Source of the DNA: an uncultured bacterium
Lineage (GTDB): Bacteria; Vulcanimicrobiota; Xenobia; Xenobiales; Xenobiaceae
DNA: 64,000 bases
Direction: 5' to 3'
Assembly: GCA_934644775.1 (NCBI GenBank)
Contig: CAKUDB010000005.1
Location: 51,036 to 115,035 of the forward strand
The notes beneath the pieces are model-generated. The model was not told where the DNA came from. It ran no database searches and saw nothing but the letters and a program-made list of their open reading frames with translations. Made by a program: the position numbers and the translations under genes. Shown here one piece after another: positions 23,716 through 26,064 of the stretch (its first letter is position 1; the number at the start of each line of letters is the position of its first letter).

Positions 23716-26064
23716 TTATTTTTTTAGGCGGCTATCCTTTTTTACTGGCAACACTTCGGCAGGTACTAAAAGGGGAAATTGCTCCAACAAAGCTTCCAAC
23801 TTAGCAACATAATAGGCGCTATTTTCGTCGGGAGTGGCGGCGTTATACAAACTGAGCTCTTTAGCATTTTCAAAAATACGCACGCTCTTCTTAGTGCCGA
23901 TAATGTAATAGCGCACCGCCTGGCCAGCAGCGTAAGTATGGGCAGATTTTAAAGCTACTTCATAAGCGGCGGCTCGGTTGCGACTGCTCTTTTCAATCTT
24001 TTTGCGATAATTTTCCAATGAATCGTTTAATATCTCAGTTTTGGCCAACAAGGTTATAGGTAGATTATGCTGGAGAATATCATCTTTAAGCCCAACTATA
24101 TAGGCCGCCGCTTCGGCCTGACGCCCTTGCAATACTAAAGAGGCCGTATTCTGTAAAGCTAAACGCAAATAAGGCTCGCGAGAGCGAGAGCGGAAAGTAG
24201 CTCCACTAAAAGACAAGTTGCCATTTTTATCAAGAAGGACATAATTTTTGGTAGTGTGAGAGTACATAGAAGGATAGAAACCGTCTAGTTCTACCCCAAT
24301 ACCGGAAGGCAAGATACCATTTATAATTTCAGCTATTTTATGGGCGTAAACTTCCGGCTTTTCTACCGCTTGAGGATCGGCTTGGAAATAGACACCGTCA
24401 GTATCGTATTCCACTACCCGACAACCTACTTCTTTTAATTTGCCAATGATAGAAGCTAAAATTTCTCTACCCTCGGCAGTAACTTGAGAGGCCCTAGTAA
24501 AATCGGCGAAATTACCTTGGGCAAAGCCTAAATAACCGTAAAAAGAATTGATTAAGATCTTAAATGTACTCTGTAAGGCCTCATAAAAACGGATCTTTTC
24601 CCGATCTGGCTCGGCCTCTTGCTCAGAAAGGCGCATAAGGGCCTTAGCCTTAAGGCGGAAATTGCGCAATTTGGCCAATAATTTAAGGAACAGACCAAGT
24701 TCGTCGCTCTGAGGGCCTAAGTTGCAACTAAGCATAATCGAGGGGTAAAGGGACTGTACGTCACAGTGATAGACCCCGTGGACGATCCCTTCTATTTCTT
24801 GACCTGCCGAAGCTCCCATATATTGGGCAACTGGCGGCTTGTCGGGAATACTGACCGAATGGTTTAAGTAATAGCGCAAGAATAAACTGTTAATTTTGGT
24901 AGCTGTACCGCGCAGAATAGTATTTTGCAGCGAATAAGGGAAAAATTGGGCCTGAACATAAAAAGGATAGAGTAAAGCTTCGCTGACTCTTTCGAGTAGA
25001 GCTCCGTAAAATTCGGCTTTTTCCCTTTCTGAAGCTAAGGTGGGCTCTTCTTCTCCCATTATTCCCAGCGATTGGGCAGTCTCTTCCAAAGAGAAGGTCT
25101 CCAATTCGCGCCAAGTTACGTCACGCAGACGGGCTAGCATTAAAGTATCGACCAATTCGCGCCCCCATAAGTCCCAATAAATGTAGTCGTAGCGTTTGTT
25201 GGCAATAGTAGTGTAGGTCTTGCGCCCTTTAGGCTCCAAACAAACGCCTTTAGGCAAGCTGCGCTTTTTATCCTCACCGATATATTCACGCCCTAGCAAC
25301 AATTTTACCTTAACGCCTTTAGCCCGTGCCTGTAAATAAGGCAAAATATCATCGTATAAAAAATGGCCTTCAATAATATCCGGATCCCAGGCTTTCACAT
25401 TTTGCACAAAATCTTGGAGCAACTTAGCTTCGTTGCCCTCATATTCGTCTAAAGAAAATACTTTTTCTCGACCGTCAGAAAGGCGCAAATAAAGACAACC
25501 GATACTTTCTTGAATACAATTATGTAAATTTTCTCCGTTACCACAGGAGGTTATTACAGTTAGACCCAAGCGCAAAAGCTCTTTAAAATTTAAGCCGTTA
25601 AAAAGGCAAAAGCCAGCTTGAGTAAGGTATAAATTGACAAAATCATTATTATAAAGTTGCCAACTACTGTGACTGGCCGAGGAAAGCTGGGCCAAGTTTA
25701 GCTTGAGCTCTTTATTTAAAGCGACTAGCTCTTCACCGGTATCAGCCGAAACAATACTGTTAAAGAATCCGCTTCCGCTCAATTTTGTACTTTCATAGTG
25801 GCCCAATGGGCTAGCGACCAAGCCTTCGTTTAATGGGCTATGGTGCAACCAAAAATAAGGGCGAAAGCTTTCCCTAGTTAAACAGACTGGCCCGCTATTG
25901 GTTGCTTTAGTTTGTTCTGGCCTCAGACGCTGCCATATATAAACTTCATTGTCATTTACAGCTACTCCCACCACTTGTGGGCGCGGCTTGGCCCCTAAAA
26001 GCTCAGGACAGCTCCCATTATCTAATACGTCGGCTAGTGAAATATGTATACCTTCAATTTCCAT
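23716..26064 (-). CDS. polB: Family-B DNA polymerase (Pol II-like), with a probably degenerate 3'-5' exonuclease Exo I motif
   Basis: Pol motif A DVQSLYPSIM, motif B KILINSFYGYLGF and motif C EYDTDGVYF. The 782-aa length matches bacterial Pol II. The expected FDIE(T) Exo I position reads TVITSC. Confidence 0.75.
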   Translation of the reverse strand: MEIEGIHISLADVLDNGSCPELLGAKPRPQVVGVAVNDNEVYIWQRLRPEQTKATNSGPVCLTRESFRPYFWLHHSPLNEGLVASPLGHYESTKLSGSGFFNSIVSADTGEELVALNKELKLNLAQLSSASHSSWQLYNNDFVNLYLTQAGFCLFNGLNFKELLRLGLTVITSCGNGENLHNCIQESIGCLYLRLSDGREKVFSLDEYEGNEAKLLQDFVQNVKAWDPDIIEGHFLYDDILPYLQARAKGVKVKLLLGREYIGEDKKRSLPKGVCLEPKGRKTYTTIANKRYDYIYWDLWGRELVDTLMLARLRDVTWRELETFSLEETAQSLGIMGEEEPTLASEREKAEFYGALLERVSEALLYPFYVQAQFFPYSLQNTILRGTATKINSLFLRYYLNHSVSIPDKPPVAQYMGASAGQEIEGIVHGVYHCDVQSLYPSIMLSCNLGPQSDELGLFLKLLAKLRNFRLKAKALMRLSEQEAEPDREKIRFYEALQSTFKILINSFYGYLGFAQGNFADFTRASQVTAEGREILASIIGKLKEVGCRVVEYDTDGVYFQADPQAVEKPEVYAHKIAEIINGILPSGIGVELDGFYPSMYSHTTKNYVLLDKNGNLSFSGATFRSRSREPYLRLALQNTASLVLQGRQAEAAAYIVGLKDDILQHNLPITLLAKTEILNDSLENYRKKIEKSSRNRAAAYEVALKSAHTYAAGQAVRYYIIGTKKSVRIFENAKELSLYNAATPDENSAYYVAKLEALLEQFPLLVPAEVLPVKKDSRLKK

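Follow-up and report, generated by a model that had tools for sequence, protein, structure and literature searches.

The family-B DNA polymerases (PolBs) of bacteria fall into three groups: G1, the Pol II-like enzymes with a GWN sequence in the Exo II motif; G2, which lies within archaeal B2; and G3, which is EpsilonN-like (PMC7544198). A conserved glutamic acid in motif C (E-x-DTDG) is a synapomorphy of PolEpsilonN, B10 and G3; bacteria are believed to have received G3 from viruses, and only Salinibacter and Nostoc phages are named as viral carriers (PMC7544198). A 2026 survey of about 3000 complete genomes describes G3 as conserving both its exonuclease site and its polymerase site and as possessing a β-clamp motif (PMC12926913); the exonuclease site and the clamp motif describe the group and do not define it. 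The gene described here lies on the minus strand at 23716..26064 of a 64,000-nucleotide (nt) stretch of contig CAKUDB010000005.1 (the whole stretch is called the window below) from an uncultured bacterium of the Xenobiaceae, and is a complete polB-type gene for a G3 PolB with a dead exonuclease site. Unlike the published G3 description, its clade has lost the four exonuclease carboxylates and has no canonical C-terminal clamp motif; it is an exonuclease-inactivated lineage of G3 and part of an apparently recurrent trend in the group. A survey limited to complete genomes would miss uncultured lineages with such exonuclease-dead G3 enzymes.

None of the four DEDDy carboxylates is present in the Xenobiaceae protein, which has T169, I171, I240 and L357 at these positions according to MAFFT, hhalign and hmmalign alike. 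The Exo I remnant RLGLTVITSC (amino acids 165–174; 25543..25572, minus strand like all features of the gene below) has threonine for aspartic acid at 169 and isoleucine for glutamic acid at 171. In the Exo II remnant GHFLYDDILPY (amino acids 233–243; 25336..25368) the usual N, F and D are replaced by F235, D239 and I240, and the Exo III remnant FYGALLERV (amino acids 352–360; 24985..25011) keeps Tyr353 and has leucine for aspartic acid at 357. A 30-sequence MAFFT alignment shows textbook motifs in homologs that are at most 37% identical to the protein: its Exo I column reads R-L-Q-L-D-I-E-T in active homologs and R-L-G-L-T-V-I-T here, Exo II reads E-G-H-N-x-F-x-F-D vs E-G-H-F-L-Y-D-D-I, and Exo III reads Y-x-L-D-D-V-R-E-T vs Y-G-A-L-L-E-R-V. 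The segment preceding the Exo III remnant is shorter than in active homologs, and other conserved residues near the site are also changed (N to F235, K to E327 and R to E340).

The preliminary description had read the Exo I position as TVITSC (amino acids 169–174), without either acidic residue, and the three independent alignments concur. Aligned by hhalign with E. coli Pol II, a profile of 88 sequences places SIDIET over GLTVIT and GWNVVQFD over GHFLYDDI (probability 99.8), and hmmalign of 324 family sequences puts TVIT under the Exo I D-I-E-T of the homologs, so the position is confirmed by alignment guided by hidden Markov models. Residues 165–172 form the β-strand that opens the exonuclease domain in an AlphaFold2 model, which is the location of Exo I in solved PolBs. 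Residues 1–420 contain a single D-x-E, D36/E38, which belongs to the N-terminal domain and which the clade does not conserve, so there is no conserved alternative to this Exo I position. The loss goes beyond the Exo I change first noticed, since Exo II and Exo III have been stripped of their carboxylates as well.

The polymerase center is intact, as the preliminary description had said from the motif A, B and C strings, all of which are present. Motif A, DVQSLYPS (24739..24762; amino acids 435–444 as DVQSLYPSIM), supplies the metal ligand D435 and the steric gate Y440, and is invariant in the family. Motif B, KILINSFYGYLG (24526..24561; amino acids 502–514 when read as KILINSFYGYLGF), contains K502, N506, Y509 and G510, and is assigned from family alignments. 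Motif C, EYDTDG (24394..24411; YDTDG is amino acids 553–557), has invariant D554 and D556 and an invariant G3/Pol ε-type Glu552, and in the KxY motif KNY (24241..24249) K606, N607 and Y608 are all invariant. Across 88 homologs DVQSLYPS, KILINSFYG, YDTDG and KNY do not vary, all seven polymerase catalytic positions are intact in the hmmalign alignment of 324 sequences, and the pattern DY/KN/EDD is shared by the Xenobiaceae protein and the homologs P0002–P0018.

The ORF (open reading frame) has an ATG start and a TAA stop, and its 782 codons specify 782 amino acids before the stop; protein P0001, on a 66.7-kb Logan contig, is identical. The Pfam model DNA_pol_B (PF00136) matches the C-terminal half with 90.5 bits (cutoff 23, E=1.4e-25), whereas PF03104, the model of the exonuclease domain, gives 19.3 bits and so stays below its cutoff of 23. 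An N-terminal domain (amino acids 1–159; 25588..26064; boundary approximate) is delimited by the family alignment and a confidently modeled fold. It is followed by the exonuclease domain (160–372; 24949..25587), whose fold is kept in the model in spite of the sub-threshold Pfam score, and by the palm, fingers and thumb of the polymerase domain (373–770; 23755..24948), assigned from Pfam and PDB matches. The model, built on the 88-sequence alignment, has a mean pLDDT (predicted local distance difference test score) of 91.8 and a pTM (predicted template modeling score) of 0.89, and Foldseek matches it over its full length to archaeal B3 PolBs with template modeling (TM) scores of 0.73–0.75 over about 820 alignment columns; archaeal B3 enzymes are also the best solved relatives by sequence. 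Thus the N-terminal, exonuclease and palm/fingers/thumb domains are all present and predicted to be folded like those of a canonical PolB. A two-stranded β-hairpin of the exonuclease domain is retained as well (amino acids 279–298; 25171..25230; DSSP strands 279–287 and 290–298 in the model), and its residues R281, A288, Y294 and W297 are conserved in the clade.

When 5.8 billion proteins were searched, 99 homologs were recovered. All homologs that are 40–82% identical to the Xenobiaceae protein (P0002–P0018 and the loci L002–L007) have lost the exonuclease motifs. No carboxylate remains in the protein itself or in P0002–P0016, only the Exo III aspartic acid is kept in P0017 and P0018, and the number retained across the whole 31-leaf clade is zero to two of four. 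Members of the clade include Candidatus Bruticola metagenome-assembled genomes (MAGs) of the Xenobia (Vulcanimicrobiota/Eremiobacterota), and MAGs from the Hadza gut and goat rumen. The residues that replace the Exo I aspartic acid (T/A/S/C/V/Y) and glutamic acid (I/L/C/S/R/T/A) differ from one member of the clade to another, an argument against a re-wired catalytic site, and the clade has no conserved acidic residues that could substitute for the lost ones. When the clade was compared with 167 exonuclease-active family members, 12 positions proved to be lost in the clade while reaching at least 85% conservation among the active sequences. All of them (169, 170, 171, 180, 235, 239, 240, 327, 340, 342, 356 and 357) lie in the exonuclease domain between amino acids 169 and 357, and no polymerase-domain position conserved in the active members is lost. 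The ratio of exonuclease-domain to polymerase-domain identity is 0.70–0.93 in the clade vs 1.01–1.08 in active members. The exonuclease domain therefore evolves faster relative to the polymerase domain in the clade, yet it is plainly still under constraint, as would be expected if it has kept a structural role. Two basal members of the inactive clade, L028 (Candidatus Xenobia bacterium AMX-MBFR-33) and P0101, keep the Exo I glutamic acid and the Exo III aspartic acid (T-E-T-D), a pattern that may be an intermediate stage of decay.

The loss is not confined to this clade. A search of 1.84 billion representatives with the clade profile was made, and the matches were classified together with the earlier homologs; among 266 full-length sequences with intact polymerase motifs, all four carboxylates are present in 167 and at least one is missing in the other 99. 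On a neighbor-joining tree of the polymerase domain, Fitch parsimony gives 21 active-to-inactive changes, a figure that is indicative only because sampling favors relatives of the Xenobiaceae protein, branch supports are lacking and some singletons may be erroneous. The protein falls within the largest all-inactive clade of this tree, the one of 31 leaves. This rough tree suggests that exonuclease loss in G3 has occurred independently about 20 times.

The second exonuclease-dead clade comprises 29 G3 PolBs of Chthoniobacterales/Verrucomicrobia. Their Exo I reads L-E-V-L-S and their Exo III R-A-L-C-A-V-R-E-T; the Exo II aspartic acid and all polymerase motifs are kept. They are found at loci L009, L012, L018–L020, L030, L034, L040, L043, L045, L049–L054, L058, L060–L063, L069, L070, L073 and L077, with the PolB match at about 8001–10200 in most. 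In several of these genomes the PolB gene follows the murB-ddl-ftsQ-ftsA-ftsZ cluster, and no partner gene is conserved in the clade, the neighbors being the dcw cluster (murB-ddl-ftsQAZ), an M20 peptidase and glyoxylate-shunt genes. Other Chthoniobacterales genomes (L016, L022 and L036) carry an exonuclease-proficient PolB copy.

Two further features of the family were seen. Twelve representatives form a third G3 clade in which every member is inactive (P0132, P0121, P0128, P0150, P0131, P0140, P0122, P0125, P0148, P0142, P0130 and P0139); these are short proteins of 644–708 amino acids, and the Exo III region is gapped in nine of them, suggesting progressive erosion of the exonuclease domain. 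At the other extreme of length, many family representatives have 1000–1400 amino acids and match the profile in two stretches, with a break near motif A/B or motif C (P0133, P0144, P0156, P0172, P0180, P0186, P0194, P0207, P0210, P0225, P0237 and P0241), and in several of them the motif columns of the hmmalign alignment are disrupted at the break. PolB genes with an inserted intein typically give such a two-stretch match, and a PADLOC match to the profile named "HEase" fits this.

The preliminary description had called the enzyme Pol II-like, and here the markers point elsewhere. The residue two before DTDG, Glu552, is the G3-type motif C glutamic acid and is invariant in the family. The Exo II context is EGHN in the family and EGHF in the Xenobiaceae protein, where E. 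coli Pol II has IGWN in the same columns, so there is no G1 GWN. The NCBIfam cutoffs for DNA polymerase II equivalogs are missed by a wide margin (65.7 bits vs 570, 48.1 vs 1103 and 27.4 vs 1435), and matches to the Pol II and archaeal Pol I equivalogs are all far below threshold. The G2/PolB2 marker, a single-aspartate motif C with a conserved histidine, is likewise absent, since the protein has the canonical D554-T-D556. The best annotated-phage matches of P0040, an exonuclease-active member, are Salinibacter phages (38% identity, 98% coverage, E=2e-145) followed by Nostoc/Anabaena phages, with no other phage placed higher, and the best viral match of the clade profile is a Salinibacter phage contig (L083). 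On the strength of the invariant motif C glutamic acid, EGHN rather than GWN, the two-aspartate motif C and the Salinibacter and Nostoc phage relatives, the protein is placed in G3, and is thus related to the N-terminal half of eukaryotic Pol ε; the placement uses these motif markers and phage matches, and the tree is a distance (neighbor-joining) tree within the family only. The family occurs in at least 591 GTDB species genomes, among them Verrucomicrobiota, Desulfobacterota, Scalindua, Binatia and NC10.

Other G3 PolBs have the same three-domain architecture, E-x-DTDG motif C and EGH Exo II context, and the protein is 35–39% identical over its full length to exonuclease-proficient G3 enzymes of Scalindua, Eremiobacterota, Kiritimatiellia and Nitrospirota. 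E. coli Pol II (G1) is likewise an accessory bacterial family-B enzyme with N-terminal, exonuclease and polymerase domains, and is about 21% identical over 558 alignable columns (hhalign probability 99.8); unlike the Xenobiaceae enzyme, it has an active DEDDy site (SIDIET, GWNVVQFD), the G1-specific Exo II tryptophan, a terminal clamp motif and SOS regulation. Pol II receives about 120 bits from the family profile, and archaeal B3 enzymes receive about 270. The latter (Pfu, KOD, 9N and Tgo) are the closest solved structures, with E values of about 1e-79 against the family profile in addition to the TM scores given above, but they are proofreading-proficient replicative or repair enzymes only 18–20% identical to the Xenobiaceae protein. 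Archaeal B3 enzymes lack the motif C glutamic acid and read Y-x-DTDG.

The best functional analogy is offered by archaeal PolB2/G2 enzymes, whose exonuclease is inactivated (Exo I is not conserved and Exo III is missing) and which are implicated in translesion synthesis as extenders (PMC7544198). They differ in having a single-aspartate motif C, a conserved histidine, a D(K/R) motif and a predicted multi-subunit mutasome, whereas the Xenobiaceae enzyme has a canonical DTD motif C and no conserved partner genes; its exonuclease loss is convergent, in a different clade. Eukaryotic Pol ζ and Pol α also combine an intact family-B polymerase center with a retained dead exonuclease fold (PMC7544198). 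Unlike the Xenobiaceae protein they belong to Delta-like clades, are multi-subunit and bear metal-binding domains at the C-terminus, and their matches to the family profile are distant (E about 1e-28 to 1e-39).

The C-terminal end of the protein is also unusual. Motifs of the QxxL[AF]L or QQMSLF type close many proteins of the family, and the exonuclease-dead Chthoniobacterales clade keeps a canonical C-terminal clamp motif (QESLAL or QNTLAL). The clade of the Xenobiaceae protein ends instead in EQFPLLVPAE and a basic tail, without either type of motif; by comparison of C-termini the tail, EQFPLLVPAEVLPVKKDSRLKK (23719..23784), has no canonical terminal β-clamp motif, and the model is of low confidence in the basic tail, with pLDDT dropping to 39–59 at the end. 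QFPLLV is a weak internal candidate that is not firmly called a clamp motif, because the same position is occupied by a general K-F-x-P-F-F element of the family that coexists with true terminal clamp motifs. Without a canonical motif, the enzyme may be held to the sliding clamp more weakly or in another way.

The gene is flanked on one side by a divergent gene for a hypothetical secreted protein and nadE, and on the other by an M32 carboxypeptidase gene and groES/groEL. The upstream block (the hypothetical gene, nadE and two more genes) is syntenic in the window, L002, L003 and L005, loci whose PolBs are 49–81% identical to that of the window. Clustering of ORFs from 27 loci for conserved partner genes found only metabolic and housekeeping neighbors (AMP-ligase family, nadE, nitroreductase-like, O-antigen-ligase-like, groESL and M32 peptidase), and there is no integrase, primase, helicase or partner exonuclease near the gene. 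Its guanine plus cytosine (GC) content is 0.435, compared with 0.463 for the window, and there is no compositional anomaly. A scan of viral contigs found only relatives at most 34% identical, PHROGs gave generic DNA polymerase families only, and PADLOC made no defense-system assignment, matching only the polymerase part of its intein-bearing "HEase" profile. Upstream synteny, housekeeping neighbors, a GC content near that of the window and the distance of the viral relatives all point to a chromosomal gene that has been inherited vertically rather than acquired recently by horizontal transfer. The preliminary description had hinted at horizontal acquisition, for which there is no local support.

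The DNA between the PolB gene and the divergent gene (26065..26238, recorded on the minus strand) is an upstream intergenic region shared by the two; it is 79% identical in alignment to that of L002, the locus whose PolB is 81% identical, and contains blocks conserved with it. A promoter scan of this region found nothing above chance. About 125 nt past the stop codon lies a weak terminator-like hairpin (23577..23590, minus strand; pattern scan), and the count of terminator-like sites in the region does not exceed the shuffled expectation. No RNA genes were found in the window with Rfam or ARAGORN.

Several other genes in the window deserve brief mention. The divergent gene (26239..27270, plus strand), syntenic in the window, L002, L003 and L005 as part of the block above, encodes a predicted 343-amino-acid protein with a hydrophobic N-terminal stretch and no Pfam or PADLOC match. 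A 1263-amino-acid ORF (4789..8580, plus strand), also with no Pfam match, contains many tandem Q/P/A/T-rich repeats of about 30 residues (TLGAQPYQPRPATALGAQPQAQQQ...) followed by a predicted membrane segment and a lysine-rich tail, and explains a local rise in GC to 0.54. Two tandem paralogous CNNM/CBS-domain transporter genes of the CorC/HlyC type lie at 628..3951 (minus strand). A UDPGP-family (PF01704) UTP-glucose-1-phosphate uridylyltransferase gene (15585..16982, minus strand) and a squalene-hopene cyclase gene (36155..38395, plus strand) are ordinary genes that may be informative about the organism's metabolism. Three ORFs of 477, 592 and 969 amino acids (38480..39913, plus; 44597..46375, plus; and 59057..61966, minus) have no Pfam match at E≤1e-4.

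Bacteria replicate their chromosomes with C-family polymerases, so a PolB in such a host is most likely an accessory enzyme. Taken with the residues described above, it is likely that the protein is a polymerase-active, proofreading-dead accessory PolB, and the residue-level part of that reading is strongly supported. Such an enzyme would carry out DNA synthesis on primed templates but would be unable to remove a mispaired 3′ terminus through two-metal hydrolysis. Its dead exonuclease domain would be kept as a structural scaffold, including the β-hairpin and elements of the DNA path, and the enzyme could serve to fill gaps, to extend from mismatches or lesions, or in restart, at a fidelity below that of its proofreading G3 relatives and a function resembling that of exo-minus Pol II, Pol ζ or archaeal PolB2. 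A role specifically in gap filling or lesion bypass is drawn by analogy with exo-minus Pol II, Pol ζ and PolB2/G2 and from replication by C-family enzymes; it has perhaps a little short of an even chance of being the right one.

Several observations weigh against this picture. Genes for DNA repair are missing from the neighborhood of the PolB gene, as are lexA, recA, imuA/B and Y-family polymerase genes, and no LexA-type operator was found upstream by reading of the sequence, the L002 alignment or the promoter and terminator scan, so that the context lends a damage-response role no support. The alignment used as AlphaFold2 input was dominated by exonuclease-active homologs. No biochemical data exist for any G3 PolB (PMC12926913), and activity, exonuclease loss and fidelity are all deduced from residues. 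Finally, an Asp-Asp pair, D238-D239, lies one position before the lost Exo II aspartic acid, where active members have x-F-D; it could be a one-residue shift in register or mark a new role.

That pair is a point in favor of an exonuclease that is still active through non-canonical residues, such as D238 and D239 together with other acidic side chains. Both are conserved in the exonuclease-dead clade (D238 in 15 of 18 sequences and D239 in 16 of 18, with Glu in the other two; 25345–25350 in the window) beside the lost Exo II aspartic acid, and Tyr353 is kept. The Exo I replacements, however, are hydrophobic or small and vary within the clade, the opposite of what a re-wired site should show, and the other invariant acidic residues (E212, D229, D306 and D315) are family-wide rather than clade-specific. 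A DEDD enzyme becomes inactive when it loses no more than the Exo I pair, and a non-canonical site is very improbable. Less improbable, though still unlikely, is that proofreading has been outsourced in trans to a separate 3′–5′ exonuclease, a DnaQ-like protein or the editing site of another polymerase, in which case net fidelity would be high and the enzyme neither mutagenic nor suited to bypass. Trans-proofreading is established for bacterial Pol III α subunits and DnaE3/PolC (PMC12926913), and the retained exonuclease fold and β-hairpin would fit continued handling of the primer terminus; but no exonuclease-like gene is adjacent or syntenic at the loci of the clade, and K327 and R340, invariant in active members, are also lost. 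If those residues contact the primer end, as their position suggests, the domain would no longer receive it.

The inactivation might also extend to the whole protein, leaving a relic that is decaying or no longer catalytic, comparable to the C-terminal half of Pol ε, either with a structural role or as an incipient pseudogene. There are known cases of inactivated PolB modules that serve a structural role (PMC7544198), but this frame is intact and full-length, the polymerase catalytic residues are invariant across a clade that has diverged to 40% identity, and no conserved position of the polymerase domain has been lost, all of which leave a relic with hardly any likelihood. Nor is the gene at all likely to be the replicase of a recently acquired integrated phage or other mobile element. 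The presumed viral derivation of G3 and the G3 PolBs of Salinibacter and Nostoc phages (PMC7544198) would allow it, but the groES/groEL, M32 carboxypeptidase and nadE flanks, the synteny in related genomes and the lack of a nearby integrase, primase or helicase speak against it, as do viral relatives at 34% identity or less, the absence of a compositional anomaly and of a PADLOC defense assignment. A proofreading-dead accessory polymerase thus accounts best for the gene.

Exonuclease inactivation is well known in specialized polymerases, and since that principle is already established, exonuclease-dead G3 enzymes extend a known theme and are not a new mechanism. Nevertheless, G3 is the second most common bacterial family-B group and no member of it has been studied experimentally. 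The exonuclease-dead clades contradict its current description as proofreading-competent and clamp-binding, and probably some members of G3, if not more, are accessory polymerases of low fidelity; the group also offers natural exo-plus/exo-minus pairs with which its function could be tested. A bolder and rather doubtful proposal is that G3 has been converted repeatedly (about 20 times, with the Xenobia/Eremiobacterota and Chthoniobacterales clades as examples) into proofreading-free polymerases that make up an unrecognized mutagenic or lesion-extension class. If true, this class would be convergent with Pol ζ and PolB2, would have lost the canonical clamp motif as well in the Xenobia lineage, and might substitute for Y-family polymerases or ImuABC in these uncultured phyla. 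For its host, a gut- or rumen-associated relative of the Xenobia, the enzyme is a candidate contributor to damage tolerance and mutagenesis.

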